64,000 nt of DNA from Lentisphaerae bacterium GWF2_57_35 (GCA_001804865.1 MHBK01000048.1:4843-68842), one strand, 5' to 3'. Positions 1,953 to 47,519 are shown, counted from the first letter of the stretch. Notes: a model not told the origin generated them from the letters alone. A program made the numbers and translations.

Positions 1953-1968
1953 ACCTGTGAACTTGAAG

Positions 1969-7077: not shown

Positions 7078-7081
7078 GGCT

Positions 7082-7810
7082 ATGTCTTTTTTAAATAATC
7101 TGAGAGTCTACTCAAAAATTCTCTTTCCAAGAATCAGTGGGTGCACGCCCGCTGAACGATTGGAGAGCTTTTATTCAGGACAAGCAGAGTTCTTTGATGA
7201 TTTTCGAAAAGGGATGCTTCATGGGCGAGAAGAGCTGATGCGTGCGATCCCTGTGCCGAAAGACGGCATCTGGGTGGACATGGGTGGGGGGACTGGGAAT
7301 AATTTGCATTATCTTGGAGATAAATTAAAGGATTTGAGAAGAATCTATTTAGTAGATCTTTGTGCTTCTCTTCTTTCCGTCGCCCGACAACGAGTCGAGA
7401 AAATGAAGTGGCGAAATGTGGAGATCATCAAGGCCGATATAACTTCATACAAGCCTCCCGAAGAGTATGCCGATGTCGTTACATTCTCGTATTCTTTGAG
7501 CATGGTATCGAATTGGCTTGCTGCTTTGAACAACGCTGAGATCATCCTGCAGCCAGGAGGATTTGTTGGGGTCGTGGACTATTATATTTCTCAGAAACAT
7601 CCTGCGGCAGATAATGAGCGCCATTCATGGGTTTCACGCCAGTTCTGGGCTTATTTCTTCAAGCATTGCGATGTACATCTTTCCCCTGATCAACTGCCTT
7701 ATCTGTGTTCAAATTACGAAAAACAGCATCTTTTTGAAGGGAGAGCCCGCATACCCTACTTCCCTTGGCTCAAACCTCCGTATTTCCGTTTCATTGGGCG
7801 GAAACTATAA
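7082..7810 (+). CDS. Class I SAM-dependent methyltransferase
   Basis: Motif I 'WVDMGGGTGNN', followed by 'IYLVDLCASLL' (acidic motif II region) and 'VVTFSYSLSMV'. ATG at 7082 lies 4 nt after the upstream stop. The track's TTG at 7058 would overlap the upstream gene. Confidence 0.75.
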   Translation: MSFLNNLRVYSKILFPRISGCTPAERLESFYSGQAEFFDDFRKGMLHGREELMRAIPVPKDGIWVDMGGGTGNNLHYLGDKLKDLRRIYLVDLCASLLSVARQRVEKMKWRNVEIIKADITSYKPPEEYADVVTFSYSLSMVSNWLAALNNAEIILQPGGFVGVVDYYISQKHPAADNERHSWVSRQFWAYFFKHCDVHLSPDQLPYLCSNYEKQHLFEGRARIPYFPWLKPPYFRFIGRKL

Positions 7811-7834
7811 ACAGGCAAAGTGGATACTTGATAT

Positions 7835-8554
7835 ATGATAGAACGGTCCATTACGCGAATAGACAAACTGTCTGATGCCGATAAAGAGATGATGTTTCAT
7901 CTCCATCGGAAATATTTCTGCCATGTCGTTCATGAAATATTTCTCAAGGATATGAACGAAAAAGAATGGGCCATTGTCTTGCGGGAAGGGCGGAATATCG
8001 TTGGCTTTTCATCGCTGATGATGCTTCATCATTTACTCGATGGCGAGAAGGTGAGCTTCATATTCAGCGGCGACACCATCGTAGATCAACGATATTGGCA
8101 AACCAGTGCTATTGCCGGAAGCTTTGGACATTACATGCTCCGGATGATTGCTGAACACCGGCATAACCTCTATTGGTTTCTGATTTCAAAAGGCTACAGA
8201 ACCTATCGCTTTCTCCCTGTATTCTTCAACCAATTCTATCCCATCCATAACGCTCCAACCCCAGATGCATATCAACGACTTTTGAATTTGGCCGCTACGT
8301 ATAAATTTGGACATGCCTATGATCCAGAGACGGGGATTATCAAGATGGGCAGAAAAAAAGATTGGCTTAGGCCCGTAATGTGCGAAATTCCTGAATCACG
8401 TCAGAATGATCCTCATGTTGGGTTTTTCTTGCAGAGGAATCCTACCTACAGCCAAGGCGACGAGTTGGCCTGCATTACCCAGGTAGCGGAGTGTAATTTC
8501 AATAAATATGCCTGGAGGGTCATTAGACAGAATCACGTGCGGTGGGATGAATAA
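7835..8554 (+). CDS. Hypothetical protein, tentatively GNAT-like N-acyltransferase / acyl-amino-acid-synthase-like
   Basis: 239 aa. 'WAIVLREGRNIVGFSSLMML...VSFIFSGDTIVDQRYWQ' resembles a GNAT-type core. The assignment is weak. Its stop region overlaps the GH3 start by 8 nt (ATGAATAA). Confidence 0.4.
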   Translation: MIERSITRIDKLSDADKEMMFHLHRKYFCHVVHEIFLKDMNEKEWAIVLREGRNIVGFSSLMMLHHLLDGEKVSFIFSGDTIVDQRYWQTSAIAGSFGHYMLRMIAEHRHNLYWFLISKGYRTYRFLPVFFNQFYPIHNAPTPDAYQRLLNLAATYKFGHAYDPETGIIKMGRKKDWLRPVMCEIPESRQNDPHVGFFLQRNPTYSQGDELACITQVAECNFNKYAWRVIRQNHVRWDE

Positions 8555-10211
8555 AGCCGGGCAATTCATCAGTGTATTTTGTGCCAATCTAGCATGGTTC
8601 CTATCCTGTTTACCTCGGTTGCTTCTTTTTATCCTGGCCTCGTTTAGTATCAAGCGTCAGCAGGAAAAGATCCTTCGCGGCATCATGAAACCCAATGCCA
8701 ATTCTGCATACGGAATGAAATACGGATTTGGATCTATACGGTCGTCGAATGACATTCGACAAATTCCCTTGTCGGAATATGAAGAATACAGTCCGTTTAT
8801 CGAACAGCTGCGCAATGGCGGGTCTTCATGTCTGACGGTTGAGCCCATTCATCTATTGCAACCTACCAGCGGATCGGTTAGTGCAACGAAATTGATTCCT
8901 TATACTCAATCCTTGAAGAAGCAGTTTGCAGCGGCCATTGATCCTTGGATCGGGTTTACCTATCTTCATTATCCGAGAATATTTGGAGGGCGTCATTATT
9001 GGTCCATCAGTCCTTCGACGCATCATCACATGGCAGGGCTACAAAAGATTCCGGTGGGATTTGCAGAGGATGCCGAATATTTAGGGGTTGTACAAAGACA
9101 GATGGCGAAAACATTGTTTGCCGTTCCCGCCGAAATCTCACGAGTCTCCGATCCTGAAGCTTTTCAATACTTGACGCTCTTATTCCTGATTGGGGAAAAG
9201 CATTTGCGGCTGATTTCTGTCTGGCATCCCTCGTTTCTTGCCATTTTGGTCGATGCCATGGCCGGACAGTTTCCTGATTTCATTCGTGACATCGGGTCCG
9301 GTGTCATCAACCAAGAGCTCAAGTTGGCTTCACCACTCCGGCAGATTTTCGAATCGCAATTACAGCCTGATCCAGTGCGAGCTGCTGAACTTGCCTGCCT
9401 GGATTGCGGCGCGCCTGGTTTTCCCATGAAGGTTTGGCCTGAATTGCATTTGATCAGTTGTTGGACTGAAGGGTTATCCGACTTGTGGGTTTCGAAACTT
9501 AGACGTTGGTTCCCGCTAGCCTTCATTCAAGGCAAAGGGTTGGTGGCCACGGAGGGCATTGTTTCGATCCCCATTGACTCCTCGCGAAAAGCTTGTGCCG
9601 TGGGATCCCATTTTTATGAGTTCGTGGACAGTCAGTCGGGCGGAATCAAGCGTGTTTGGGAACTAGAGAATGGACACGAATATAGCGTGGTCCTGACAAC
9701 GGGAGGAGGCTTGTATCGGTACCGGCTTCACGATTTGGTCCAGGTTACTGGACATTATCATCAGGTCCCGTGTTTTGAGTTTATTGCAAAAGACAATCTG
9801 GTTTCAGACCTTGTAGGCGAAAAACTCAATTCGCGACATGTAGAGGAAAGTATTCGTCGAGTGGAGGAGATCTGCCATGTCTGTTTCGAATTTGCTCTTT
9901 TGGCTCCTGGAAATAGCAAAGACTATCCACGATATGACTTGTATGTGCAGCCCGATTCAAACGGATTTGTTGACTTCCCTGCCGTCGCGGTGCGGATGGA
10001 AGAAGAACTAAAACGGAATTATCACTATCATCATGCGCGTCAACTCGGCCAGCTTCAGCCTTTGAAGGTGTTTCACATTTCCGGCCAAGCGGATGTTCTC
10101 TATCGCCGTCACATGATTGCACGGGGAATGAAGCCTGGTGATATTAAAATTTACGGCCTCTCCCTGGATTCGTCATGGGCTTCTATTTTCAATGGCGAGT
10201 ATGTGACGTAA
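8547..10211 (+). CDS. GH3-family (auxin-responsive-promoter family) acyl-acid amido synthetase-like adenylating enzyme
   Basis: GH3 hallmarks: 'LLQPTSGSVSATKLIPYT' (TSG..K.IP nucleotide motif), 'TTGGGLYRYRLHDLVQVTG' (the GLYRYR.GD motif of GH3 proteins) and 'LVSDLVGEKL'. Start at ATG 8547 (MNKAGQF...) keeps the conserved N-terminal 'QQEKILRGIM...YGF' region. Confidence 0.7.
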   Translation: MNKAGQFISVFCANLAWFLSCLPRLLLFILASFSIKRQQEKILRGIMKPNANSAYGMKYGFGSIRSSNDIRQIPLSEYEEYSPFIEQLRNGGSSCLTVEPIHLLQPTSGSVSATKLIPYTQSLKKQFAAAIDPWIGFTYLHYPRIFGGRHYWSISPSTHHHMAGLQKIPVGFAEDAEYLGVVQRQMAKTLFAVPAEISRVSDPEAFQYLTLLFLIGEKHLRLISVWHPSFLAILVDAMAGQFPDFIRDIGSGVINQELKLASPLRQIFESQLQPDPVRAAELACLDCGAPGFPMKVWPELHLISCWTEGLSDLWVSKLRRWFPLAFIQGKGLVATEGIVSIPIDSSRKACAVGSHFYEFVDSQSGGIKRVWELENGHEYSVVLTTGGGLYRYRLHDLVQVTGHYHQVPCFEFIAKDNLVSDLVGEKLNSRHVEESIRRVEEICHVCFEFALLAPGNSKDYPRYDLYVQPDSNGFVDFPAVAVRMEEELKRNYHYHHARQLGQLQPLKVFHISGQADVLYRRHMIARGMKPGDIKIYGLSLDSSWASIFNGEYVT

Positions 10212-10696: not shown

Positions 10697-11596
10697 ATGT
10701 CTGTAACCGTTGTGCCGTATAGTGGCTGGGAACGAAATCTGCGATTGGCAAACGATCAGGTCGAACTGATTGTCACGTTGGAGGTCGGGCCGCGCATCGT
10801 TCGGTATGGTTTTATCGGCGAAAAAAACGTTTTTGGCGAGTTTGCCGGGCAATTGGGGCAAAAAGGCGAATCGAAATGGCAAATTCGGGGCGGGCATCGT
10901 TTCTGGATCGCGCCGGAACAAAAACCCCTGACGTACGAACTGGACAATGGGCCGGTCGAATTTGAAGAGATCGAAGGCGGCGTGCGTTTGATCCAGCCCC
11001 AGGGGCCGTTAAGCGGCATTCAGAAGACGATGGACATCCGTCTGCTGGATGCCAATGGACGTGTTTCGGTTCGGCACTCTTTGACCAATCGAACAGACAA
11101 GGCCATCGCCTGTTCTCCTTGGGCTTTGAGCGTGATGGCTAAAAAGGGTCTCGCGATTATCCCGCTGCCGGATGTGGTTCCTCATGACGAGCGCTTGACG
11201 CCGAATCAGAACTGGACGCTTTGGAGTTACACCGACCTGGCCGATCAGCGATATCAGATTGGGTCGTCTCTCATACTGATCCGGCAGGACCCTGCGCGGG
11301 GGCCCACCAAAATCGGATTGGCCCAGCGCGAAGGTTGGATTGGCTATCTTGCGGACGGCTATCTGTTCGTTAAACATTTCCAACGGTTGGAAAACGCCTC
11401 GTATCCCGACTGCAATGTCAATTGCGAGATCTACACGGACGAAGATATTCTCGAGTTGGAAACGTTGGGCCCCCTGACGTCGCTGGAACCGGGGCAGTCG
11501 GTTCAGCACGAGGAGCAATGGGCTTTGTTCAAGGATGTGCCGGATTGCACGTGCGAAGAGGAAGTGAATGCGGACGTGCTGCCGTATGTGATGTAG
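10697..11596 (+). CDS. Hypothetical protein, possibly DUF4380 / aldose-epimerase-like beta-sandwich
   Basis: Strong SD (AAAGGAGG) 7 nt upstream of the ATG. 'GGHRFWIAPE' and the overall beta-rich pattern resemble DUF4380 / mutarotase-like proteins. It sits first in the plus-strand EPS gene row. Confidence 0.4.
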   Translation: MSVTVVPYSGWERNLRLANDQVELIVTLEVGPRIVRYGFIGEKNVFGEFAGQLGQKGESKWQIRGGHRFWIAPEQKPLTYELDNGPVEFEEIEGGVRLIQPQGPLSGIQKTMDIRLLDANGRVSVRHSLTNRTDKAIACSPWALSVMAKKGLAIIPLPDVVPHDERLTPNQNWTLWSYTDLADQRYQIGSSLILIRQDPARGPTKIGLAQREGWIGYLADGYLFVKHFQRLENASYPDCNVNCEIYTDEDILELETLGPLTSLEPGQSVQHEEQWALFKDVPDCTCEEEVNADVLPYVM

Positions 11597-11677: not shown

Positions 11678-14119
11678 ATGAAACGGTTGTACGCAAATCT
11701 TTTGCAGCCGGTGTGGATGAGTTGTCTGCTGCTCGGTTGCTTGCCTGTCTCTGTCCTTGCTCAAGAAACGCTCTACGATTATGAAACGCCGGAGCCGGCT
11801 CAAGCTCGATGTGCGGCTCCTGTCTTTACGAATGCCATTACACTTTCTACCGGCGTACAAGCCGAGGCCAAGGACCTTGCGCGGGCGAGGGGATTGATCC
11901 AAAGCGACGAGCTCGCGGAGGGCTGCGCGCTGCTGGAAAAGATCGTCGAGGTTCAGCCGACTTATATTCCGGCCTGGAGGCTGCTGGGCGAAACGTACTG
12001 GCAAAATGGGCGGCAGGAGGATGCGATCCGCCTGTGGGAATTGTTGCGTCCGATCGTTCCTTCAGAGTTGTTCGTGCACAATTCTTTGGGCGATGCCCAC
12101 CGTTCGAGAAACGAGTTGGAGCCGGCGATCGAGGCCTATCGCCGTAGTTTGCAGGTCGATGCCGACCAGCCCGAAATCGTGTTCCAATTGGGCCGCGTAC
12201 TGCGATGGGCGGGGCATTTGGAGGAGGCGATTGCGGTCTTGCAGCCGCTGTGCCAAACCCATCCGGAGCGCATCGATATCAAAGCCGAACTGGCGCGCTC
12301 CTACTTGACAAGCCGTCAGTACGACCGAGCCCTGCCGCTCTGGAACGAATTGGTTGAAGCGGCTCCGGCCCATGCCGAATACGAGACGTATCGCACGTTG
12401 GCCTTGTTTTACGCGGGGCATCGCGAGGAGGCCATTGGTCATGCCCAAGCCTTGATCAGAGATCATCCCGCCAACAGCCGGCTCTTATCGTTATTGGCGG
12501 ATGCGGCCGAGTACAGCGGCGACTTGTTCAGTGCGGCGACGTTTCTGGAGCAAATCTACAGTGCTTCGGGGCAGGACATGAAGAGCCGTCGCCGCATTCT
12601 GAATCGATTGATTCCGTTGTATGACCGTGGTTACGGCCAACAGGCGGAGCGGTTTCCCCTGGACCGGCTGTGCGAGCTCGTTCGCGGCTATATTCAAAGC
12701 GATCCGATGAATGCCGACATGTATCTGGCGTTGGGGGATCTGTTGGTTCTCGACAGCCGTTATGAAGAAGCGATTAGCGCGTATCGTCATGTGCTCGATG
12801 AATTGAACTCCTGCAATATACGCGCCCATCGCGGTCTGTTCGAACTGTTGTTGCGTCAGGGCGACTATGAGGGCGCCGAGCAGGAACTGTCTTCCATTCG
12901 TCGCTTTAATCCCCATGATCCCTATTTGTATTCCATCCAGGCCCGGTGGTATGCGGAGCAATCTCGCTATAAGGAGGCGTTCGAGGCGTTGGACAAGCTG
13001 GAGCAATCGGGCTGGAACGGCTCCCTGGCCGTCTTGCTTTATCACGGACTCAGCAGCAGCGACGATTCGGAAATACTGCCCGTGACGCAATTCCAGGAGC
13101 AACTGAGTTTATTGAAGGAGGCCGGTTTTCGATTTATCACGGCGGCGCAGATTCCCGGATATTTCGAGCAAGCCCGGCGCATGCGCGAGCTGTTCGGCGG
13201 GATGGGGGTCGAGCGGGTGGCCTGCGTTACGTTTGACGATGCCCGTCGCGATGCCATGCGCCTGGGTACGCCGGTGGCGGAAGAATTGGACCTTGTTTTC
13301 TCCATGCATGTGCCGGTGGGTTTTGTGGAGGAGCAGCACCCCTTTATCAGCACCTTGGATATGTTGAAGGAATTCGAGGCAACCGGACATTGGATCATGG
13401 GCAGCCACTTGGTGGACGCCCATAAAGGCTATCCGTTGGATGCCGAAGGACATCAGGGGTACCCGATGGCCAATCGCGTATGGATTGCCGAAGCGCACAA
13501 GACGGAGTCCGAAGCGCAATATGTTCAGCGCGTTGCCGCGGAATATGGCCAATCGCGGCGCTTCATGGATGCCTATCTCCATACGGCCCGCACGACGCCG
13601 TTTGTGGCGTATCCCTTCGGCGATATCGGCCAGCAAACCGTCTGCAACGAAATCGAGTCCGTGCCGATCAATTTGCGCGAATGCGGACGGCATTACCAAG
13701 TCGGCTTTATTCAGAGCCCATTCGGATACGCCGTGCAGGGCGACAACCCCTTGCTGTATCAACGCATCGAACCGCATCGGTGGGAAAACGGCAGCAATCT
13801 GGTCGTTCGCGTGCTGGAGAATCATCCGGTCTTGCTGGCCCGGCGCCTCCGCGCGGAATATGCGGCGCGCGCGGGCAAAAAGTATCTGGCGCGGGATAAT
13901 TTGGAAGCGCTTCAGAAGGATGGCTATCCGCCGTCTTCGCTGGAAAAAACGCGCCTCTACGTTGAGCGCATATTGGGACGAAGAATCTCGCTGCCGGAAC
14001 CGGCGGACGAAGATCCGGCGGACCCGCCCCAGCGGCCGACGGTTCCCGGGACCGAGGCCCCTCGTGAAGATCTTCAGCCTTCGCGACAGGAGCTTTTGCG
14101 GGAGAATCTCGGATTCTGA
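11678..14119 (+). CDS. Secreted (possibly lipo-) protein: N-terminal TPR array + C-terminal CE4 polysaccharide-deacetylase-like domain (PgaB-role candidate)
   Basis: Signal peptide 'MKRLYANLLQPVWMSCLLLGCLPVSVLAQE' with a possible lipobox LLGC. About 400 aa of TPR-like repeats ('AWRLLGETYWQNGRQEDAIRLWE', 'NSLGDAHRSRNELEPAIEAYRRSLQVD'). CE4 motif-1 'ACVTFDDARRD', then 'FSMHVPVG' and 'FVAYPFGDIG'. Paralogue of the next gene. Confidence 0.75.
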   Translation: MKRLYANLLQPVWMSCLLLGCLPVSVLAQETLYDYETPEPAQARCAAPVFTNAITLSTGVQAEAKDLARARGLIQSDELAEGCALLEKIVEVQPTYIPAWRLLGETYWQNGRQEDAIRLWELLRPIVPSELFVHNSLGDAHRSRNELEPAIEAYRRSLQVDADQPEIVFQLGRVLRWAGHLEEAIAVLQPLCQTHPERIDIKAELARSYLTSRQYDRALPLWNELVEAAPAHAEYETYRTLALFYAGHREEAIGHAQALIRDHPANSRLLSLLADAAEYSGDLFSAATFLEQIYSASGQDMKSRRRILNRLIPLYDRGYGQQAERFPLDRLCELVRGYIQSDPMNADMYLALGDLLVLDSRYEEAISAYRHVLDELNSCNIRAHRGLFELLLRQGDYEGAEQELSSIRRFNPHDPYLYSIQARWYAEQSRYKEAFEALDKLEQSGWNGSLAVLLYHGLSSSDDSEILPVTQFQEQLSLLKEAGFRFITAAQIPGYFEQARRMRELFGGMGVERVACVTFDDARRDAMRLGTPVAEELDLVFSMHVPVGFVEEQHPFISTLDMLKEFEATGHWIMGSHLVDAHKGYPLDAEGHQGYPMANRVWIAEAHKTESEAQYVQRVAAEYGQSRRFMDAYLHTARTTPFVAYPFGDIGQQTVCNEIESVPINLRECGRHYQVGFIQSPFGYAVQGDNPLLYQRIEPHRWENGSNLVVRVLENHPVLLARRLRAEYAARAGKKYLARDNLEALQKDGYPPSSLEKTRLYVERILGRRISLPEPADEDPADPPQRPTVPGTEAPREDLQPSRQELLRENLGF

Positions 14120-14197
14120 TTTAGAAAGACATTCAAATCGAATTGGCCTATACTGCACAAATTCACATTGTCGAAACAAGCTATGGGGAATAAACCA

Positions 14198-17100
14198 ATG
14201 GTCAAATGGATTGCCGCGTTTGTATTGCTCGTTGGGTTTGAAATGGTCCATGCCGATGAAGCTTTCGAATCTCCAGCGATGCCTGAGCCTTCCATCACTG
14301 CCGATCCGAATAACCCTGATGTAAAGCCAGAATCTCCGGTGAACGGCCTGTTCGAGGCGGCCAATCGGGATATGGCGGCGACCAACTGGCCGGCCGCGAT
14401 TACCAAGTTGGAACAAGTTATCGAACAGGACCCCAGTCTGCTCTCTGCTTGGGGCCAACTCGGCTGGTGCTATTGGAACAATGGCCGCCAGGACAAAGCG
14501 ATCGAGCTGTGGGAAACCCTTCGGCGCATCAATCCAAAATTGCCGATGGCCTACAATCTGCTGGGCATGGCGTATATGGCCAATGGGGAGCAGCCGAAAG
14601 CCATTGAGTTTTTTCGCAAGAGTCTGGAGTTAGATCCGGATCAAGAACCTGTCGAGTATTCGATCGCCCGCCTTTCGCGTTGGGAGGGGCGCTTCGAAGA
14701 CTCGATCAGCATTCTCCGACGTCAATTGGACAAGAACGAAGACCGGCTCGATATCCGGTTGGAACTCGCGCGCGCCTATCTGAACAACTGGCAATTCGAA
14801 GAGGCGCTTCCTCTTTGGGAAAAACTGGCGCAAAGCCAGCCGGACAACTTGGAATATCGTTTGTACTGTGCGGAGTGCCGACTGCGCACCGGCCAGGCCG
14901 ATGAGGCGTTGCCTGAGATCGAACAAATTTTAGCCGAAGATCCGAACCATACCAGCGCGTTGTTAATCATGGCCGATCGGGCCGAATACGGCGAACGTCC
15001 CGCCGATGCGATTCCCTATCTTCGCCGGTTGGTCGCGGAAACCACGGAACTGCAATTGCGCCAGAAATATCGAATGAGGTTGATCGACCTCTACGTCCGC
15101 CTCAATCGCGACAAGCCCTTGGAGTATCCCCTGAACGAAGCGATCGGCATTCTCAAGGATTACATCCGGGACGATCCCAATAATACGGATGCGCTGCTTT
15201 TGCTTGGCGAATTGCTTTCGATGGACAACCAATTCGCCGATGCCCAACAAAAATTCACGATCGTGCTGCGCGATTTCAACCCCAACAACATGAGGGCGCA
15301 ACGCGGCTTGTTCGAAGCGTATGCCGCCGAGAAGAACTTTGCGGAGGCCGACAAGCATCTGAAGCGCGTCGAGGCCTTCAATCCACAAGATCCGTATAAT
15401 CATTACCTGCGGGCTCGCTATGAAGCGGCGAGGGGACGTTTCGGACGGGCGTATCAGGAACTGGATAAATTGGAAGCGGCCGGCCAGCAGGGTTCCGTGC
15501 TCGTTCTGCTCTTTCATGGTTTGACCACGAGCGAGTGGACCGAAATCCCTTCCGTCAGGCTCTTCCGCGAGCAATTGATGGCCTTGCAAAAAGCCGGCTT
15601 CCGTTTTCTGACGCCCATGGATCTGCGCGATTATTTTTCTTCCCTGGAAAGAATTAACGACAGCCGTTCGGAGCGAACGCCCAATCGCGCCGTCATCATC
15701 ACCTTCGACGATGCGCGTCTGGATTCCTTCCGTTTGGCTACGCCGGTTTTCAAGGACTTGGGCATTCCTTTTTCGATGCATGTGCCGGTCGGCAACATCG
15801 AACGGAAAGATCCGTTTCTCGCGTCCTGGAAGCAATTGGCGGATTATCGGCAACAGGGTTGGGTGATGGGCAGCCATCTTTATGAGGCCAGCACGCCTGT
15901 GCCGGGCGAGCGGGGGATGATGGTCCGTCCCCTGACCAGCCTTATCCGCCTCAACCCGGCCAACCGCATGGAAACGCTGGACGAATTCAACCAACGCATC
16001 CATATGGAATACGACCTGAGCAGCCGGCTGATGCAATCCTATTTGGGCGAAAAGCCGTCCTTTGTGGCCTATCCCATGGGCGACATCGGGCAGGAGACCT
16101 ACAGCGACGTTCCGGAGGCCGTGACGGTCAATTTGCAGTCGGCATCCACGAATTACGCCGTCGGTTTCATTCAATCCGTTTTCGGGTATGCCGTCAACGG
16201 GGATAATCCTCTGCTGTATCAGCGGCATGAGTTGGGGCGGCATGTTTCGGCCAGCAACACCGTGAATGAAGTGCTCAGGATGCATCCGGTCTTTTTAGCG
16301 CGCCGCATGAGGGCCGAATTGGCGACGCTGGAAGGCAAGCAGTACAAAGCGCTGAAAATCCTGGAACGGCTGAAGGAAGACGGTTATCCGGAGCAGTCCT
16401 ACAACGACCTCAATACCTATGTGCATACGAAGCTGTCCCACAAATTCGTTCCTCCGCCGTCGGTTGACAACGTGAGCAAAGGGCCTTTCAATTTGGATAT
16501 TAAGAAGCCGTATGTGGGGGCGAGGGCTCATTATTTCCAAGACAATTTGGAGCGCAAAAATTATCACATGTATGCGTTCGGAGGGCTTAATCTCACGCCC
16601 AATATCGTTGCCGAAGGCCAGGCCGGATGGGGTCAGCTTAAACAAGGCCGGCAAGACTTGGATGACGGCAGTTCGCTGCCGGAAATCGAGGTTGACGAGA
16701 CCTCGGCCGGGGTTAAAGGATCCTTCACATTTCCCAGCGGAAATTTGCTCTCCGGCGATTTCATGTTGCGCAATTTCGGCGAGCCCGTGAACGAAGTCGA
16801 GCCGACCTATGGGATCGAGGGTCAGTTCAAACCGGTCTTGCCGCTCGATCTGACCGGACGCTTCGAGCACGATGTGGAGCCGTCTGCGCGCACCGTCGTG
16901 CGCGACATGGTTACTTACGATCAGTGGATGGCGAACGGGGTTTTCAGCATTCGGGATTGGTGGGATGTGTGGGGCAGCGGACAATACTACCTCTATTCCG
17001 ACGATAACAATCGTTTGCATGGAGCCGTGAGCAGCCAATGGTTGATTTGGGAAGACATCGGCTTGCGCCTCGGCTTGCGTTATGCCTATACCACCTCGGA

Positions 17101-17521
17101 AGAAGCCCGCGACGATTATTGGACGCCTTACCAGTTGAATCGATTTTATCTGGAAGCATCGCTCCGTCATACCTACCAGCGAACCTATTATAACTTGCAG
17201 GCGCGGACCGGACTGGGCAAACAGAATGTCCGCCCGGATGCCGACGAAAAACACCAGGCCCGTCTGGTTCAGTTAAACCAGGATATCGCAACGGCCCGAC
17301 AGCAGCGCTGGCCGCAAAGCGACATCGATGCGCTGATTCAGGAACGCGACCAACTGATCGTCAATCCGCCGGAAGAAGAATGGAAACCCGTTTTCGGCTT
17401 GGCCGCTTCCGTCCGCAGCAAGCTGGGCGAACACTGGGAATTGCACGGCGAAGTCTCCGTCAACAAAGTGCCGGAGTATTACGAAGCCACGGTGGCGGGC
17501 GATATTACCTTCCGATTTTAA
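14198..17521 (+). CDS. Secreted TPR array + CE4 deacetylase-like domain + C-terminal outer-membrane beta-barrel (PgaA/PgaB-like roles fused)
   Basis: Signal peptide 'MVKWIAAFVLLVGFEMVHADE'; alternative starts at 14168 and 14183. TPRs ('AWGQLGWCYWNNGRQDKAIELWE'). CE4 module 'AVIITFDDARLDSFRLATPVFKDLGIPFSMHVPVG' and 'FVAYPMGDIG'. The last ~330 aa have alternating hydrophobic/aromatic strands ('HMYAFGGLNLTP', 'GVKGSFTFPSGN', 'LRLGLRYAYTT') and end in 'DITFRF', a typical OMP C-terminal aromatic signature. Confidence 0.7.
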   Translation: MVKWIAAFVLLVGFEMVHADEAFESPAMPEPSITADPNNPDVKPESPVNGLFEAANRDMAATNWPAAITKLEQVIEQDPSLLSAWGQLGWCYWNNGRQDKAIELWETLRRINPKLPMAYNLLGMAYMANGEQPKAIEFFRKSLELDPDQEPVEYSIARLSRWEGRFEDSISILRRQLDKNEDRLDIRLELARAYLNNWQFEEALPLWEKLAQSQPDNLEYRLYCAECRLRTGQADEALPEIEQILAEDPNHTSALLIMADRAEYGERPADAIPYLRRLVAETTELQLRQKYRMRLIDLYVRLNRDKPLEYPLNEAIGILKDYIRDDPNNTDALLLLGELLSMDNQFADAQQKFTIVLRDFNPNNMRAQRGLFEAYAAEKNFAEADKHLKRVEAFNPQDPYNHYLRARYEAARGRFGRAYQELDKLEAAGQQGSVLVLLFHGLTTSEWTEIPSVRLFREQLMALQKAGFRFLTPMDLRDYFSSLERINDSRSERTPNRAVIITFDDARLDSFRLATPVFKDLGIPFSMHVPVGNIERKDPFLASWKQLADYRQQGWVMGSHLYEASTPVPGERGMMVRPLTSLIRLNPANRMETLDEFNQRIHMEYDLSSRLMQSYLGEKPSFVAYPMGDIGQETYSDVPEAVTVNLQSASTNYAVGFIQSVFGYAVNGDNPLLYQRHELGRHVSASNTVNEVLRMHPVFLARRMRAELATLEGKQYKALKILERLKEDGYPEQSYNDLNTYVHTKLSHKFVPPPSVDNVSKGPFNLDIKKPYVGARAHYFQDNLERKNYHMYAFGGLNLTPNIVAEGQAGWGQLKQGRQDLDDGSSLPEIEVDETSAGVKGSFTFPSGNLLSGDFMLRNFGEPVNEVEPTYGIEGQFKPVLPLDLTGRFEHDVEPSARTVVRDMVTYDQWMANGVFSIRDWWDVWGSGQYYLYSDDNNRLHGAVSSQWLIWEDIGLRLGLRYAYTTSEEARDDYWTPYQLNRFYLEASLRHTYQRTYYNLQARTGLGKQNVRPDADEKHQARLVQLNQDIATARQQRWPQSDIDALIQERDQLIVNPPEEEWKPVFGLAASVRSKLGEHWELHGEVSVNKVPEYYEATVAGDITFRF

Positions 17522-17541
17522 TCGTGGCGGGAACGTTAAGA

Positions 17542-17747
17542 GGACGGCGAGGCCGCCGTCCCTCCCGGCAGGTGGCCCGGCTTCTCCGAAGACGGGCTTT
17601 CCTGAAAAGAACGAGCCCCCCACAGAAAATAACAGGAGCGGTTGGGTGCATCCTGACACGGCCGCAACCGCGGACGGCGACGGAGCGCCGTCCCTACCTT
17701 TTTTTGCCGTGGGTAGGGCGCTCACTCCGCTGAGCGCCGTGTTTTCC
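17542..17747. terminator. Cluster of GC-rich hairpins between convergent EPS genes; probable bidirectional termination zone
   Basis: GGACGGCG-aggc-CGCCGTCC at 17542-17561. GGACGGCG-acggag-CGCCGTCC at 17672-17693, followed by CTACC+T7. GGCGCTCA-ctccgc-TGAGCGCC at 17717-17738, followed by GTGTTTT. CCCTACC (17692-17698) can also pair with GGTAGGG (17712-17718). Confidence 0.45.
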
Positions 17748-17779
17748 TGTCAAACAGGCCGGAGCGGCTTACGGCGATT

Positions 17780-20700
17780 TTATTTCTTGCTGTCTACCGT
17801 TGAGGCTTCCATTCCCGTCCAGAGCGGAATGCCCGGCAATGCATCGGGCATGGCTACGACAACCGGTTTTGTTGGCGAAAGCGTGCTTAAAGGCTTGTGC
17901 GAACCATTGGGCTCTTCCCACGAAACAGCTTGCACATCCCGGACTTCGGAGGCCCCATTGAAAATGGCTGCGCCTTCTCCTGCGCCGCGCCACTGGCAGG
18001 CTCCGGCAACCGGATCGAGCGCGAGCACCAACACCTTCAACGAGGAGCCCGCCAGTTCGCGATCCAACTTTTCGAACCAGGCGGCTTCAGGCAATCGGTC
18101 CAGCAGCAGGGTAAATCCGGAAAAGCCGTGTTTATCGGCGGCCGCCAGCAGCTCGCTGCCCGAGATCTGATGAGCGGAAGAGGCCTGAACCGCCGGCATC
18201 AGCCGCAAACGATAATATCGGGCGAAGAGCCGCAACAGCATCTCGTTTTCGCCCGCTGACTTTGACCAGGTTCCGTTTTCCTCGATCCGAAACCAAAGAG
18301 GCGCAAGGTCGGAGATGTAATTGCACTCGGGCTGCAGTTTTTCGATCAGGACATCCACATCGTTGGTGGCTTTCAGCGCCGGCAGCAGCACCAAGCGAGG
18401 CATCAGCGGGCCGGCGGCTATACGGCTGATGGCGGCCTGCGCGGTCCCTCGTTCGTTCCGATAAACACTCAATCCCACCCATCCCAAGCCCAGATGGGGC
18501 GGTACTTCCAGGGGAGATGAGAAAACGGGCGAGCTGTCAATCAGCCCGATCACGCCGTCGCCGCGCAAGGCGAGGCGCAGGTTTGCGCCGTCCGCGGGGA
18601 GCGTCCAGAATTTGGATTGCGATGCCACCAAGTGTCCGTGATTCCAGACTTGCAGGAAGAGCTGGTGCGTGTCGTCCAGTCCGAACCGGATAAAGTGATC
18701 CGACGTTCGCCGCACATAAAGCCAGAAGGAACCGGAAACTTTTTTCACGACCGCCTCGATGAACGAGTCGGTGATATGCTCCGATCCCAGCAGCCGCAAG
18801 GCCGCCTCGGAATGGGAGGAATCCGCACTCAGAACGCCTCCCTGGGTGGAGTGCCTCGAGAACGAACCTCCATCGAGCCACCAGGCTTCCGACAGATGTC
18901 CGTCGGCGCAGGATTCCTGTAAAGGCGCATACCGGGGTTTTAAGCGAAGAAACAAGGCGGTGACGCGATCGTCGCCTTTTTGTTCGGAGACGGTATTGAT
19001 GAGCCGGATCAGCGGATAGGTTTGGGCCACGCTCAACAAATCGTATTTCCAAATGGCTTGCCCTAATTCGTAGCGTTTATCGGCTTTCTGGCCCAGTTTC
19101 ACCAACGTATCCAGGCGCGCAGTAAATTCCGCCGGCTCCAAAGGCAACCGCAAGGCGATGGCATTGGCCTCGATGTGTTCAGGCTCCAACGTCAGGATTC
19201 GCTCGACCAGCCGGATCGCTTCCGGGTTCCGGTTTTGCCGCCACAACCATTCTGCCTGGGCCAAAAGAATGGATACGTCGTCCGGGAATAGACGGGCATA
19301 CATATTCAAGCTGCTGACGGCTTCGTTGATTCGTCCCATTTTTGTCAGCAAATTGACCCGTCGAATGACGAGCGAAATCTGGCCGGGATCCTGTTCCAGG
19401 CTTCGATCGTAAAACAGAATGGCCTGTTCGGAATCGCCTTTGCGGAGGTAGGCGTCGCCGATCAGCATGGGCGGGCGCGGATTCATGGCATCCAGTTTGA
19501 ACCATTCCGACCAGGCTTCGACGGCTTTGTCGTATTCCGCATCCAGGTAGGCCGCCTGGCCCTCCTGTTGCAGCCGGCTTAAACTGGCTTCCAACGTTTC
19601 TTCCATGTTGGTCCCGGCGGTCATCGGGATTTCGAACGACAAGGGCAACCCTTCATCCGGCGCCGGGCTGGGAATCGTTTCCACTTTGGTGGTCGATTCC
19701 TTGGTATAAGGATCTCGTTTGATGGGCGAGTTGGTGGAGACCGCCAGTTGAAGCCCGGGCGCCACCGCGAGAATGGATCGCAAGGACATGCTGGACTCGA
19801 TCGCTGTTGGCAATCGCACCAGCATGGAAAGTCCTTTGCGTTGAAGCGTCTTGGCGCATTGCATCAGCCAGGTGGTGATTCCAGCCGGGGAGGGGTTGTT
19901 CATATCCCCGAAATCCATGAAGATGCCGTCGCATTGATCCGCCGCGGCATCGTCGGCCAGCTTGGACGGCGTCAAGCGGCTTAACGCCTGCTCGTTTTCC
20001 ACCCGTACGCAGGGCATCAGTTTTAGATGATAAATGCGGGAAAGCGTTTTGAAGGTCGTCGCGTCCCATCCGGTTTTCAAGGCTTGTCCTACGCCGGATA
20101 CGGTCATCCACTTGGGACTCAAGCCGGTTAATCGGTAGGCATTCCGGTGCAGCCACTGCAAAACGTAGGGCTCCCGGGCGCGATCGATGTCCCAGGCGGC
20201 CAAGGTGCGTTGTTCCGAGTTCAGCACCACGCTGGAGATGCTCACTCGCGCCTGGCCCTTGACCGGGTCCCATACGCTGATCCCCAACATGCCGGGCCGG
20301 GCTTCGCCCCGCAATAGAATGTGATCCTTGAAGATCTGACGTCCGTCCAGCATGGCAAACAACATGCGGTCTCGGACGAATATCTCCAGGATGTGATCGT
20401 CGCGCGAATCGAGCCCCAAGCGGGCCGAGGCCAGCGTAAAACGTTCCGCGCTGACGCTCTTTTGCCGGAGCCAGACATTCAGGTCGTTGCTCAGCTCGTC
20501 GTCCGACCAATTATCCATCTCCTGGCCCATCTTCTTTTCGCGCAGCCAGACTTCGCCCCGCGTATCCATGCCCAGATAAACATACGACTCTTCATCGGCG
20601 GCCGCCCGCAGATAGACGCCCATCTGGCCCCGTTCCAATTTGAAAAGGACGCGCGTATAGAAATCGCGGCTTAAATCGCTTCCGCCCAGCCATATTTTGG

Positions 20701-21808
20701 CGCCGGTAAGTTCTTCGGGAGCATACAGGGTCAGCCGATTGTCTTCCTGCTTCATCGCGCCCCAATCCACAATCCAGGCCGACGGCATGGTCACGGTGTC
20801 CTTCTCCAGTTGAGCTTCCTCCAATGGCCAAGAACGATCCAGATAGCGGATCAAATCGGAGGCGCTCCAACTCGAACGCACCCGCAACCGGTTCAATCTT
20901 CGCGGGTCGCTGTAACGGGTGTTCAGCGCCAGATTCCCGGAAAGAAAACCCAGGTCGTAATTTTTTCCGACCAACGCCAGATTGATGCTCCGGGGGACGA
21001 CGGCCCGCGGCTGGAATTGTCCGAAATCCCCATAGGGATATGCGAAAGCCATCGGTTTGAGGCTGACTTCTTCCTCGATATCGGTCAGGCATTTTTCGTG
21101 ATCGGCGATCAGGCGTTTCTGGAATTCTTCCACGGTTTCGTAACGGAGGTCCTTGTCCAACCAGCGTGGACTGGTCATGAAATGGCCCATGCGCCCGCCG
21201 GGGCTGGCCTTGATTTTTTCAAACCCGCCGTAACTTTGGGCGCCGATCTCCCACAACTTGGATCGCGCCATGATTTGAACATAGGGCCAGAGCAAGCTGG
21301 CGGGATCTTTTTCCACGATCGATTCCGTCCATAGAAACATGACCGCCGTCCAGCCCATCCGGCGCAGGATGGGATTGACGCTGTAGTAGGACGTTTTCCG
21401 GGCGTGATCGAAGGTGAGCAGCACGGCCTTGGGGGGAAGCTTCCGGCCTTCCTTAAACAGGCGCCGCACGTCGTCCAGACGAATTGGATTATACCCATGC
21501 GCTTTCAAGACCTCGAGGTGCTCGTTAAACTGAGCCGGAGAAATCTCGTTGGTTTTCGAAGAAACGCCTTCGTACGCCAGCGTCACAAACGATTCGGCCT
21601 CGCGCGGGCCGCTATAGGTCGCCGGAGGCCACAGCCAGCGGCTGACCACAATTTTCACCGGGAACCACCAGGCCACCAACAATCCAATCACCATGATGTA
21701 ATGGAGCCAAACCGAGCCATAGGAAACGGAAACCGGCTGGACGGGACGGGAAGAATGAGGCTGCATTTCGGAAGGACGCCCGTCCGGATCGTGAACTTGT
21801 TGTGTCAT
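17780..21808 (-). CDS. 1342-aa membrane-anchored periplasmic multidomain protein: CE4-like domain (variant motif) + [lectin-like + alpha/beta module] + TPR + second [lectin-like + alpha/beta module]
   Basis: Start at ATG 21808 overlaps the synthase stop (ATGA). N-terminal TM segment 'VWLHYIMVIGLLVAWWFPVKIVV'. CE4-like 'AVLLTFDHARKTSYYSVNPILRRMGW', 'FAYPYGDFGQ'. TPRs 'AYLDAEYDKAVEAWSEWFKLD...GDAYLRKGDSEQAILFYDRSLEQDP'. Internal duplication is visible ('RIYHLKLMPCVRV...CDGIFMDFG...GLSMLVRLP' versus 'RYYRLRLMPAVQA...FSGFTLLLD...SLKVLVLALDP'). The track's 1468-aa version extends 378 nt into the synthase gene. Confidence 0.7.
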   Translation of the reverse strand: MTQQVHDPDGRPSEMQPHSSRPVQPVSVSYGSVWLHYIMVIGLLVAWWFPVKIVVSRWLWPPATYSGPREAESFVTLAYEGVSSKTNEISPAQFNEHLEVLKAHGYNPIRLDDVRRLFKEGRKLPPKAVLLTFDHARKTSYYSVNPILRRMGWTAVMFLWTESIVEKDPASLLWPYVQIMARSKLWEIGAQSYGGFEKIKASPGGRMGHFMTSPRWLDKDLRYETVEEFQKRLIADHEKCLTDIEEEVSLKPMAFAYPYGDFGQFQPRAVVPRSINLALVGKNYDLGFLSGNLALNTRYSDPRRLNRLRVRSSWSASDLIRYLDRSWPLEEAQLEKDTVTMPSAWIVDWGAMKQEDNRLTLYAPEELTGAKIWLGGSDLSRDFYTRVLFKLERGQMGVYLRAAADEESYVYLGMDTRGEVWLREKKMGQEMDNWSDDELSNDLNVWLRQKSVSAERFTLASARLGLDSRDDHILEIFVRDRMLFAMLDGRQIFKDHILLRGEARPGMLGISVWDPVKGQARVSISSVVLNSEQRTLAAWDIDRAREPYVLQWLHRNAYRLTGLSPKWMTVSGVGQALKTGWDATTFKTLSRIYHLKLMPCVRVENEQALSRLTPSKLADDAAADQCDGIFMDFGDMNNPSPAGITTWLMQCAKTLQRKGLSMLVRLPTAIESSMSLRSILAVAPGLQLAVSTNSPIKRDPYTKESTTKVETIPSPAPDEGLPLSFEIPMTAGTNMEETLEASLSRLQQEGQAAYLDAEYDKAVEAWSEWFKLDAMNPRPPMLIGDAYLRKGDSEQAILFYDRSLEQDPGQISLVIRRVNLLTKMGRINEAVSSLNMYARLFPDDVSILLAQAEWLWRQNRNPEAIRLVERILTLEPEHIEANAIALRLPLEPAEFTARLDTLVKLGQKADKRYELGQAIWKYDLLSVAQTYPLIRLINTVSEQKGDDRVTALFLRLKPRYAPLQESCADGHLSEAWWLDGGSFSRHSTQGGVLSADSSHSEAALRLLGSEHITDSFIEAVVKKVSGSFWLYVRRTSDHFIRFGLDDTHQLFLQVWNHGHLVASQSKFWTLPADGANLRLALRGDGVIGLIDSSPVFSSPLEVPPHLGLGWVGLSVYRNERGTAQAAISRIAAGPLMPRLVLLPALKATNDVDVLIEKLQPECNYISDLAPLWFRIEENGTWSKSAGENEMLLRLFARYYRLRLMPAVQASSAHQISGSELLAAADKHGFSGFTLLLDRLPEAAWFEKLDRELAGSSLKVLVLALDPVAGACQWRGAGEGAAIFNGASEVRDVQAVSWEEPNGSHKPLSTLSPTKPVVVAMPDALPGIPLWTGMEASTVDSKK

Positions 21809-23325
21809 CGTGTACCCCACGTGGTTTTGCGCATGGTGGCCAGGGCGTAATAGCCCTGCCAACTGAAAAACAGGACGTATGTAATCGTAAAAACGAACCC
21901 TGCCCACCAATGCGGGCGCCCCGTTTTCTCCAGATAAAACAGCGACCACAAGAGCGTGACGACCAGCACGCCGCCAACATAAAAGCTCGGGAAGTAGTGC
22001 TCCATAATGGGGCCCCAGACCAAGGCTCGCAACATGACCAGCGGCGCCAGCATCGGCAACACCGTCATGGCATACCAGGAGACCGCCGCCACCGGATGCT
22101 TGCACCACATGAACCGCCCGGCATACAGCATCTCCCGAACCCACGAGCGTTTCCACCGGCATTGCTGCCGGATGTATTTGCCCCATTTTTCGGGCACGAT
22201 GGTGGTCGCCAGGGCTTCGTCGTCATAGAGGACCCGATAATCGCGGAGCAGGTAGTTGGTCAAACTCCGGTCGTCGCCGAACGTGGCGTAATGGCCGAGG
22301 AATTTCTGGTAAAGCCATCGATCCAGGACATTCAGCACGCAGACCTTGCGATAGGCGGAAAAACAACCCGGGCAGCAACTGACCGCGCCAAAAAGACTTT
22401 CGGCGGCTTTCAATACGCGATACGAAACGAAATAGCGGACATCCTGCATTTTCGTCAACGCATTGGTTCCGACATTCTCGACATCCGTATGTCCCGCGAC
22501 GGCCGCCACGGTTGGATCGACCAGCCCCTGGACGACTTTCCGGATGGCGCCGGGCATGAGGAAGCTGTCGGAATCCACATACACAAGCATTTCGCCTTTG
22601 GCCAGCAAAGCGCCGATGGCCATGCCATGACGCTTCCCTTTGTTTTTTTCGAAATCGACGACGACCAGCGACGGATGCCGATCCAATGCTTTCATCATTT
22701 CGTCCAGCGTGCGGTCGGTCGACCCGTCGTTTACCGCCACCACTTCCAGCTTCGAATGAGGATAGCCTTCCTGGTAAATGCGCCCGATGGTTTTGCCGAT
22801 GGAGTCGTCTTCGTTGCGGCAGGCTACCACCACGGTCACCGTCGGCTCGAATCCGACATCCCGGGGCGCCAGATAAAATGCCGCCAGAATGAACCGGGAT
22901 AAAATAAACACGCCCACGCTCAGGCTGTAGAGATTAATCCACGGCTGATACCAGTAATAATCCAGGTTGTGCAGCTTGAAGTAGATGGCCAGGGTAATCA
23001 GCAGGACGAGCAATGCGTTGAAGCCTAATACCAGGCCTCCATGCATCTTGTTGTATTTCTCCGAGGCTCTGCCCGCATCCGTTTCGTCGCCGGCTTCCGG
23101 CGTGGGCAGCCGGGACTCCAAGACGGTTCGTTCCATCGTATTGCTGCAGAAGGGGCAGACCGAGGATGTCAGGGAGGACATGACATGGATGCTCATCTCG
23201 CAGTTCGGACAACGATGGCTTGATCCTTTCGCCGGCTGGCGTCTTGCACCCATCGGATCTGAAACAACGCTTTCCGCAGCGCCAAGCCATGTATTGAGCC
23301 CGGCGGCCTGGTCCGAAACTGCCAT
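21805..23325 (-). CDS. Processive family-2 glycosyltransferase (hyaluronan/chitin/NodC/PgaC-like synthase) with an N-terminal zinc-ribbon
   Basis: AGGAGG lies 8 nt upstream of ATG 23325. Zinc-ribbon 'CPNCEMSIHVMSSLTSSVCPFCSNTM'. TM segments flank a GT2 core with 'VVACRNEDDSI', 'AVNDGSTDRT', 'VYVDSDS', 'GDDRSLTNYLL' and the processive-synthase motif 'QQCRWKRSW' (Q(Q/R)xRW). Several C-terminal TM helices. Confidence 0.8.
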   Translation of the reverse strand: MAVSDQAAGLNTWLGAAESVVSDPMGARRQPAKGSSHRCPNCEMSIHVMSSLTSSVCPFCSNTMERTVLESRLPTPEAGDETDAGRASEKYNKMHGGLVLGFNALLVLLITLAIYFKLHNLDYYWYQPWINLYSLSVGVFILSRFILAAFYLAPRDVGFEPTVTVVVACRNEDDSIGKTIGRIYQEGYPHSKLEVVAVNDGSTDRTLDEMMKALDRHPSLVVVDFEKNKGKRHGMAIGALLAKGEMLVYVDSDSFLMPGAIRKVVQGLVDPTVAAVAGHTDVENVGTNALTKMQDVRYFVSYRVLKAAESLFGAVSCCPGCFSAYRKVCVLNVLDRWLYQKFLGHYATFGDDRSLTNYLLRDYRVLYDDEALATTIVPEKWGKYIRQQCRWKRSWVREMLYAGRFMWCKHPVAAVSWYAMTVLPMLAPLVMLRALVWGPIMEHYFPSFYVGGVLVVTLLWSLFYLEKTGRPHWWAGFVFTITYVLFFSWQGYYALATMRKTTWGTR

Positions 23326-23532
23326 TACACAACCTCCTTTGACCTGTATCCAACCGACAAATTCAAGAGATTCAAGTACTGACGCGTCCCTGATACCCTG
23401 CACTTTAGAAAAACGACTCTTGATTAAAAATCCATTCTTATGTACTTATACGATCAATATAGTCTCGTTGGCAATATAGATCGTTGTTTCTATTCCCAAT
23501 GTCAAAGAGTGTTTGAGAGGAGAGGTCGAAGA
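23326..23532. promoter_or_regulatory. Divergent control region between the synthase operon and the receiver/ATPase operon
   Basis: A 207-bp AT-rich gap between divergent starts. It contains the direct repeat CAATATAG at 23455-23462 and 23472-23479 (17-bp register), and -35-like TTGATT (23421) and TTGGCA (23468). I could not align any canonical -10 convincingly. Confidence 0.35.
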
Positions 23533-23928
23533 ATGACCGGTTTCTTAATTATCGAAGACGAGGCCCCCATCCAAGTTATTCTCAAACGATTGATAGGCAA
23601 CATGGGTTACGATGTAACCATCGCCAATGACGGTGAAGCCGGATATCGCCTGGTTCAAGAAAACGACTTCGATGTTATTCTCACCGATCTGATTATGCCG
23701 GGGCGTCTGCAAGGATTTGAACTGCTGCGCAAAATTCGGGAAGCGAAGCCTGAGTCCTCGGTCATCGTCGTGTCAGGTCATCCCTCCAGCGAAACCTTGG
23801 CCGAATGCCAAAAACTGGGGATACAGGATTTCTTGAGCAAACCGTTTGAAATGTCCTTTGTCAGAGTGGTTGTTCAAAAGCTCCTCAACCGAAGAGCAAG
23901 TTCGGCCAGGACTGAATCGAAGCTATGA
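23533..23928 (+). CDS. Single-domain response regulator (CheY-like receiver)
   Basis: 'FLIIEDE' acidic pocket, phospho-acceptor 'FDVILTDLIMPG', 'VIVVSGH' and 'FLSKPF'. No output domain. Start at ATG 23533 is preceded by GGAGAG. Confidence 0.85.
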   Translation: MTGFLIIEDEAPIQVILKRLIGNMGYDVTIANDGEAGYRLVQENDFDVILTDLIMPGRLQGFELLRKIREAKPESSVIVVSGHPSSETLAECQKLGIQDFLSKPFEMSFVRVVVQKLLNRRASSARTESKL

Positions 23929-24845: not shown

Positions 24846-24870
24846 TAGTCGTCAAAGGAGTATGCATTAG

Positions 24871-47115: not shown

Positions 47116-47519
47116 GATGGCGCCATCCTTTCCGGCTCCGGAACTGCCCCGGTTGTAATTGCACAGGCCGATCGATCGCTTGACGATCGCGGAGACGTTC
47201 TTCCGCATATTGAGTCCATTGAAACGAACCGGGAGCATCCGGCAGCGTCACTTTTTGTTTGATGTGCATCGCTTGCTTGCCTTGTGAAGGCCCGGAAGCT
47301 TTGCGGCTTTTATTCTGTTCGCTATCGGCTCTGCGTATTGCGATCATCGTTTATACATCCTTCTGCTCTATATCAGCATAGCACGCAAAATGGAGTTTGC
47401 TGAATGGGCGGGGGCCTGTTTTCACGTTTCTCAATCCCTGAGATGCCGGTTCCAAAAGGATCATTGTCCAAAGCGGCTTGACACGCTAGTTTCGCTTATG
47501 AAGAAGGGAGGGCGCCATC

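Follow-up and report, generated by a model that had tools for sequence, protein, structure and literature searches.

A 64,000-nucleotide stretch of Lentisphaerae bacterium GWF2_57_35 (GCA_001804865.1, MHBK01000048.1:4843-68842; the whole stretch is called the window, and positions count from its first letter) encodes an 1107-residue protein that combines a tetratricopeptide repeat (TPR) scaffold, a PgaB/IcaB-type CE4 domain and a predicted 16-strand β-barrel. The gene probably belongs to a synthase-dependent exopolysaccharide system of the poly-N-acetylglucosamine (PNAG), cellulose or Pel type, for which it would specify the outer-membrane exporter. Its CE4 domain is more likely an attenuated or non-catalytic polymer-binding module than an enzyme at full strength, because a serine replaces the second metal-binding histidine. 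Judged from the models, the protein amounts to a PgaA carrying a PgaB-type CE4 domain between its last TPR and its pore. The synthase-dependent class, delimited here after PMC8892547, has four elements: a GT2 synthase, a TPR scaffold, a periplasmic modifying enzyme and a barrel porin. The interval 11678-23403 encodes candidates for all four, which are syntenic in several metagenome-assembled genomes (MAGs). From these data we infer that the protein lies in the outer membrane and that the polymer is of the N-acetylglucosamine (GlcNAc) type, and we likewise infer what the CE4 domain does.

The open reading frame (ORF) is uninterrupted from a TTG at 14168 to 17521, with an ATG at 14198 and GGGGA 9 nt 5′ of that ATG. 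Its product consists, in order, of a signal peptide, TPRs, the CE4 domain, a short linker and the barrel. About 30 full-length homologs of 1061-1358 residues, 29-61% identical, are found in metagenomes. The features of the gene are as follows.

14198-17521 (+): gene for the 1107-residue TPR-CE4-barrel protein, stop codon 17519-17521 (ORF list and translation)
14198-14254 (+): predicted Sec signal peptide, residues 1-19, MVKWIAAFVLLVGFEMVHA with cleavage before DE (read from the sequence)
14336-15487 (+): TPR superhelix, residues 47-430, 22 helices in about 11 repeats (Pfam, AlphaFold2, Foldseek)
15488-16432 (+): PgaB/IcaB-type CE4 domain, residues 431-712, and helical cap to residue 745 (Pfam, PDB sequence match, Foldseek)
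15515-15517 (+): H440, CE4 key residue in LLFHGL, aligned with the YH of IcaB 4wcj
15707-15712 (+): D504-D505, CE4 key residues equivalent to PgaB D114/D115
15875-15877 (+): H560, CE4 key residue equivalent to PgaB H184
15890-15892 (+): S565, serine at the position of PgaB His189
16433-16501 (+): linker, residues 746-768, KLSHKFVPPPSVDNVSKGPFNLD region (pLDDT 55-60; ORF continuous in all homologs)
16502-17518 (+): predicted 16-strand outer-membrane β-barrel, residues 769-1107, ending in DITFRF (AlphaFold2, Foldseek, conserved terminal Phe)
17222-17383 (+): loop 7 insertion, residues 1009-1062, a modeled helical hairpin that connects strands 13 and 14 (helices 1013-1035 and 1040-1055; AlphaFold2, pLDDT about 93-95)

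The signal peptide reads as lacking a lipobox Cys and is followed by a Pro-rich stretch of low confidence that extends to residue 46 (pLDDT below 50 at residues 1-44). Beyond it, the full-length AlphaFold2 model, built on a 28-sequence alignment, reaches a mean pLDDT of 88.9 and a pTM of 0.77. Pfam TPR families cover residues 60-430 approximately (TPR_19, E=5e-35), the modeled helices between 47 and 430 have pLDDT values above 90, and their Foldseek matches are the TPR domains of OGT and SPINDLY. NCBIfam matches to the whole protein all stay below threshold (PrsT, PgaB positions 47-216 and the TPRs of PgaA). The CE4 region is modeled as an α/β domain at 433-712 with the helical cap reaching 745. 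Within it, Pfam PF01522 (Polysacc_deac_1) matches residues 493-634 with 32.6 bits against a gathering cut-off of 23.1. The nearest PDB entry by sequence is IcaB (4wcj, E=3e-13), along with PgaB/BpsB (4u10 and 5bu6), and Foldseek places the modeled domain in the CE4 fold, next to PplD (6dq3, TMt 0.81) and PgaB (4u10, 0.76; 3vus, 0.75).

For the C-terminal third, the full-length model contains 16 strands at 769-1106. Full-length Foldseek searches were swamped by TPR proteins, and the barrel was therefore modeled and searched separately; the barrel-only model from 10 sequences again has 16 strands, at a pLDDT of 92.4. In the PDB it matches the PgaA barrel best (4y25, E=5e-12, TMt 0.71) and BcsC next (9b8a, 6tzk and 9b8h, TMq 0.65-0.68). 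PelB (9h80) comes at rank 13, and scores are lower for general porins and autotransporters. The C-terminal Phe typical of outer-membrane proteins (OMPs) is kept in at least 90% of homologs. By sequence, the C-terminal 373 residues have no match in Pfam, and a 10-sequence barrel profile finds nothing meaningful among PDB sequences (top hit a MATE transporter, E=0.14).

All long connections between strands (13, 12, 12 and 54 residues) run from an odd to an even strand, and the even-to-odd turns are 2-5 residues long. Under standard OMP topology the helical hairpin therefore would fall in extracellular loop 7, where it probably caps or narrows the pore exit; the length of the insertion differs between homologs. 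An odd helical segment shortly before the last strands had been pointed out in the initial annotation and corresponds to these two modeled helices. The same annotation proposed counting strands in the C-terminal third, which is predicted with high confidence as 16 strands matching complete 16-strand porins. Its quoted peptides all occur in the translation of 14198-17521, and the order that it read, signal peptide, TPR, CE4 and β-barrel, agrees with Pfam, PDB sequence matches, AlphaFold2 and Foldseek.

The catalytic state of the tethered domain can be judged against Escherichia coli PgaB, whose D114, D115, H184 and H189 align with D504, D505, H560 and S565. Of these PgaB residues, D115 and H184 are reported to bind the metal and H189 to belong to a nickel pocket (PMC13366581, PMC7112194). 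In the tethered CE4 domain the Asp-His-His metal triad is incomplete: D505 and H560 are kept, and the third ligand position is occupied by Ser565. Of the remaining residues, we take D504, in the TFDD motif, to be the catalytic base and H440 the catalytic acid. Five positions (H440, D504, D505, H560 and 565) were scored over 91 distinct barrel-fused CE4 domains. The complete H-D-D-H-H set is present in 17, H-D-D-H with a non-His fifth residue in 41 (24 Ser, 12 Ala, 5 others), and further residues are gone in the other 33; in other clades the fifth position is Ala, Gly, Gln or Asn. Because only 17/91 fused domains are complete, as opposed to 6/7 barrel-less paralogs, catalytic constraint on the tethered CE4 appears to be relaxed across the family. 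The initial annotation called the domain a deacetylase; the CE4 type of the domain is well founded, whereas catalysis is not established, as the residue equivalent to PgaB His189 is Ser565 here and is lost in most fused relatives too.

One of these paralogs, which the initial annotation overlooked, precedes the gene in tandem; the annotation's account of the fusion itself holds.

11678-14119 (+): tandem paralog of 813 residues with signal peptide, TPRs and a CE4 domain with complete H/D/D/H/H, without barrel (BLASTP, domain hidden Markov models, motifs)

The paralog is 37% identical to the 1107-residue protein over 772 residues (BLASTP) and has D/D/H/H at the positions of PgaB D114/D115/H184/H189. 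Its N-terminus (11678-11770, +; …MSCLLLGCLPVSVLAQE) contains both a possible lipobox, LLGC, and a possible signal peptidase I site between VLA and QE; the paralog may be a lipoprotein, as PgaB is. Barrel-less paralogs also lie 5′ of the porin gene in three other loci of the family (L001, L007 and L008, the last with two). They form one clade in a neighbor-joining tree without bootstrap support, which suggests an old, maintained duplication. A strict pairing, in which a degenerate tethered CE4 is always accompanied by an intact free paralog, was considered and fails: loci L003-L006 carry the Ser variant without a nearby paralog, and in L007 and L008 both proteins are intact.

The most serious alternative is that the tethered CE4 is a fully active de-N-acetylase, as the initial annotation had it. 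Modification and export would then be coupled in one chain, and the paralog would be a second enzyme, either redundant or of another specificity. D504, D505, H560 and H440 are all kept, exactly these four residues persist in 41/91 domains while the fifth varies, a pattern that resembles selection rather than free decay, and the Ser-variant relatives in L003-L006 have no adjacent paralog. However, one of three protein metal ligands is replaced, by Ser in this protein and by Ala, Gly, Gln or Asn elsewhere in the family, more distant members are short of further catalytic residues, and the free paralogs are nearly always complete. Full activity is accordingly regarded as rather unlikely, though it deserves more weight than any other competing explanation.

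The assignment to polysaccharide export also draws on the genes that follow the porin gene.

17672-17738 (+): two GC-rich hairpins with T runs, 17672-17693 and 17717-17738 (terminator-like by consensus scan only)
17780-21811 (-): large protein of about 1343 residues with N-terminal transmembrane helix, PgaB-like CE4 domain and TPRs (translation, NCBIfam, motifs)
21805-23403 (-): processive GT2 (NodC/chitin synthase/hyaluronan synthase-like), presumed polymer synthase (Pfam, NCBIfam, PDB)
23440-25731 (+): response regulator, KaiC-like ATPase and AAA_22 ATPase, divergent from the GT2 gene (Pfam, synteny)

The GT2 protein matches Chitin_synth_2 and Glyco_tranf_2_3 in Pfam, and in the PDB it comes closest to hyaluronan synthase (8snc, E=6e-29). 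NCBIfam models for NodC (5.6e-49, 167 bits) and PgaC (1.4e-32, 113 bits) both match below cut-off. The gene for the large protein overlaps the GT2 stop codon with its start and is translationally coupled to it. The NCBIfam PgaB model matches the large protein with E=1e-32, below cut-off yet better than it matches the CE4 domain of the porin. This third CE4 domain, also overlooked in the initial annotation, appears catalytically dead: its active site reads E/D/H/Q/F, and PgaB D114/D115/H184/H189 correspond to D/H/Q/F (YE / FDH / GAQ...F). About 400 residues before and 450 residues after the TPRs have no assigned domain. The protein, which is conserved in L003 and L013, may be an inner-membrane co-polymerase or scaffold.

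The porin gene is convergent to the pair of large protein and GT2 both in the window and in loci L001, L003, L011, L012, L013 and L017; in the window the terminator-like hairpins occupy the 258-bp intergenic region between the convergent genes. The trio of response regulator, KaiC-like and AAA_22 genes, which may be a regulatory or secretion-ATPase module, stays with the cluster in L001, L003, L005, L006 and L013. In two other relatives the porin gene lies near an MBOAT gene, accompanied in L002 by an SGNH-like gene and a GGDEF gene. Linkage to GT2, MBOAT and GGDEF genes supports, at the level of gene neighborhoods, a role in polysaccharide export.

Two of these loci have peculiarities of their own. 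In L002 (13673-16237, +; Kiritimatiellae MAG GCA_026417735.1) the porin homolog is followed by the MBOAT gene, a 97-residue ORF and a DUF459/GDSL-like gene, with the GGDEF gene 5′. The genes after the porin homolog resemble an AlgI/AlgJ-like polysaccharide O-acylation set, and there is no GT2 gene within 10 kb. In L001 (13750-18676) a DDE transposase gene separates the porin gene from the large-protein homolog, which is shortened to 685 residues and has apparently lost its CE4 part.

The protein might instead be a TPR-barrel protein unrelated to polysaccharide export and function as a Slam/type XI-like translocon or as an outer-membrane-anchored peptidoglycan deacetylase or tether. The Pfam TPR_Slam model matches the TPR region above cut-off (48.7 vs 35.2 bits), CE4 enzymes also act on peptidoglycan, and the barrel has no sequence-family assignment. 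This explanation is nevertheless very improbable, as Pfam gives no DUF560-type barrel match, the best structural matches of the 16 predicted strands are polysaccharide porins, the CE4 domain is nearest to the PNAG deacetylases PgaB and IcaB and not to peptidoglycan deacetylases, and the linkage to a processive GT2 synthase is conserved.

The fusion is not confined to the window. When genomes were scanned with the barrel profile, 18 loci turned up on independent MAG contigs from different studies, all in MAGs labeled Lentisphaerae, Kiritimatiellae, Verrucomicrobia, Victivallales or PVC group, and every complete gene on these contigs has TPR, CE4 and barrel in one ORF according to domain models built from the alignment. 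An exhaustive search of 1.84 billion cluster representatives with a hidden Markov model of the barrel gave 126 matches, 60 of them at E<=1e-30. Among the 126 are 58 full TPR-CE4-barrel proteins and 5 with TPR and barrel without CE4, the remainder being fragments. With 58 full-length members among the matches, the fusion is the standard architecture of a small unnamed PVC-group family and not a one-off. That the ORF is an assembly or sequencing artifact joining a TPR-CE4 gene to a separate porin gene is effectively refuted and was rejected on the conservation of the fusion, for despite the barrel-less TPR-CE4 gene immediately upstream and a CE4-less TPR-barrel gene in one relative (L009, 6648-8582), the same unbroken ORF recurs in the 18 contigs and the 58 cluster representatives, and the linker is alignable across homologs. 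The segment 16400-16550, which had been singled out earlier for a possible frameshift, coincides with this linker (746-768), and a frameshift is excluded because the linker is read through in every complete homolog on the 18 contigs.

The CE4-less gene of L009 (6648-8582, -) encodes 644 residues, with this barrel preceded by only some four TPR pairs, and it shows that the barrel can work in this family without the CE4 insert. It lies upstream of a gene for an uncharacterized 744-residue protein and an MBOAT gene, on a contig that also carries a normal CE4-barrel gene. One of the cluster representatives, P0121 (595 residues), has the same layout, a short TPR region and the barrel without CE4.

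Taken as an exporter with an attenuated CE4 domain, the protein would act within the following sequence of events. The GT2 synthase would polymerize a GlcNAc-containing chain and translocate it through the inner membrane. The free TPR-CE4 paralog would partly de-N-acetylate the polymer in the periplasm, doing most of the de-N-acetylation in the system. The TPR and CE4 modules of the porin would then capture the chain and feed it to the 16-strand barrel, the tethered CE4 binding the polymer and passing it to the pore, while the loop 7 hairpin would shape the exit.

Several observations weigh against this account. Retention of four of the five catalytic residues in 41/91 domains suggests continued selection and possibly residual catalysis. 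Loci L003-L006 have the Ser variant without a paralog within 10 kb, so that the division of labor with a paralog is not universal. The barrel, having no match to Pfam or PDB sequences, is connected to PgaA, BcsC and PelB through predicted structure alone. Lumen-facing charge, by a crude estimate from strand periodicity, is balanced (16 acidic, 18 basic residues) and uninformative about the charge of the substrate. The GT2 protein falls under the curated NodC and PgaC cut-offs, which hence do not name the polymer, and all homologs come from uncultured MAGs.

A more elaborate version of this scheme can be offered tentatively, with odds somewhat against it. It envisages an undescribed synthase-dependent system of the PVC group for a chitin- or hyaluronan-like GlcNAc polymer that employs three diverged copies of the PgaB-type CE4 domain. 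The free copy would be active, the inner-membrane copy beside the synthase would be dead, and the copy at the mouth of the PgaA-like pore, usually a degenerate pseudo-enzyme, would read and hand over the polymer, with the hairpin gating the exit.

In the PNAG and Pel systems studied, the deacetylase must meet the TPR-porin for modification and export, and biochemical mapping puts the contact at the porin-proximal TPRs. The family described here would represent the same deacetylase-porin contact fixed by gene fusion, thereby lending independent evolutionary support to the contact model and offering a single-chain target for structural study of polymer transfer from modifying enzyme to pore. Because catalytic residues are repeatedly lost in the tethered copy and kept in free paralogs, the comparison suggests that the CE4 domain can serve for docking or binding independently of catalysis. 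The finding also marks an uncharacterized exopolysaccharide system in Lentisphaerae, Kiritimatiellae and Verrucomicrobia, whose porin carries in the source annotation the automated label 'tetratricopeptide repeat protein' ('TPR repeat protein') or, once, 'PgaB'. For specialists, it is a useful natural experiment more than a surprise.

Other genes of the window have less obvious connections to the system. Directly 5′ of the 813-residue paralog, 10697-11596 (+) encodes a mutarotase-like protein of the DUF4380/TTE1925 family (NCBIfam E=1.5e-86, 290 bits vs a cut-off of 550), possibly a sugar epimerase of the polysaccharide pathway. Still further 5′, and in the same orientation as the TPR-CE4 genes, 19-10211 (+) contains genes for an amidohydrolase, four radical-SAM proteins (three with B12-binding domains), a 366-residue ORF, a SAM methyltransferase, a 239-residue ORF and a GH3-family adenylating enzyme. 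Such a block is absent beside the porin gene in L001 and on that ground probably belongs to a separate pathway. Elsewhere, a 930-residue ORF (44446-47238, -) has an unusual pairing of a GH1-like domain (101-344) with a C-terminal GT4-type domain (750-866).

By the curated models, the protein lies outside the PgaA, PgaB, BcsC and Slam families. The Slam barrel has 14 strands. Compared with the Slam/DUF560 type XI translocon, only TPR_Slam matches, the C-terminal 373 residues are without a Pfam match, and 16 strands are modeled. BcsC and PelB (6TZK, 9B8A, 9H80) have 16-strand barrels after their TPRs (Foldseek TMq 0.56-0.68 with the modeled barrel), but they have no sequence similarity to the protein outside the TPRs (NF008520, 37.9 vs 858) and no embedded enzyme domain. 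In BcsC the pore is roofed by a dome of extracellular loops (PMC8892547), to which the loop 7 hairpin may be analogous. A precedent for joining a periplasmic processing enzyme to a TPR-porin is the BcsZ-BcsC fusion in Zymomonas, which is reported in a survey (PMC7112194) and differs in having a glycoside hydrolase instead of a CE4 domain, in another polymer system and other bacteria. The passages of that survey on fusions report GT-PgaB proteins and contain no PgaA-PgaB fusion (PMC7112194). In the literature searched, whose coverage is incomplete and gives no proof of absence, neither a TPR-CE4-porin nor a PgaA-PgaB fusion was found described.

PgaA, the PNAG porin of E. coli (4Y25), is the nearest counterpart of the non-enzymatic parts. 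Both proteins have N-terminal periplasmic TPRs and a C-terminal 16-strand barrel, the latter modeled here, and in each case a processive GT2 is encoded nearby. Unlike PgaA, the protein places a 315-residue CE4 domain between TPRs and barrel and has a hairpin of about 54 residues in loop 7. It shows no sequence match to the PgaA barrel (TIGR03939/NF007468, 49.6 bits vs 366.65, TPR positions 33-181 only), and gene order and neighbors differ. The inserted domain is of the PgaB/IcaB subtype by sequence and fold and keeps the Asp residues for catalysis and metal binding, the first metal His and the R-x-E-T...E-Y...R-I helix motif. In contrast to PgaB, it has Ser at the position of His189, the second metal His, forms part of a porin chain without a lipoprotein signal, and is followed by linker and barrel rather than by a C-terminal GH153 domain. 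The PgaB model TIGR03938 matches with 32.1 bits against a cut-off of 321.9 over profile positions 47-216 of 621 only, leaving the C-terminal half of the profile unmatched.

The initial annotation contrasted this single chain with the separate PgaA and PgaB, and PelB and PelA, proteins, a contrast that domain analysis and fold matches sustain. E. coli PgaA binds the deacetylase domain of PgaB through its porin-proximal TPRs, which stimulate the activity of that domain, as reported for PelA and PelB (PMC9384988). The CE4 domain of the present protein occupies the same position as in the PgaA-PgaB and PelB-PelA complexes, between the last TPR and the pore. It departs from them in that the link is covalent, the tethered domain is possibly impaired and a free TPR-CE4 paralog is also present. 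By analogy, the fusion looks like a hard-wired PgaA-PgaB complex.

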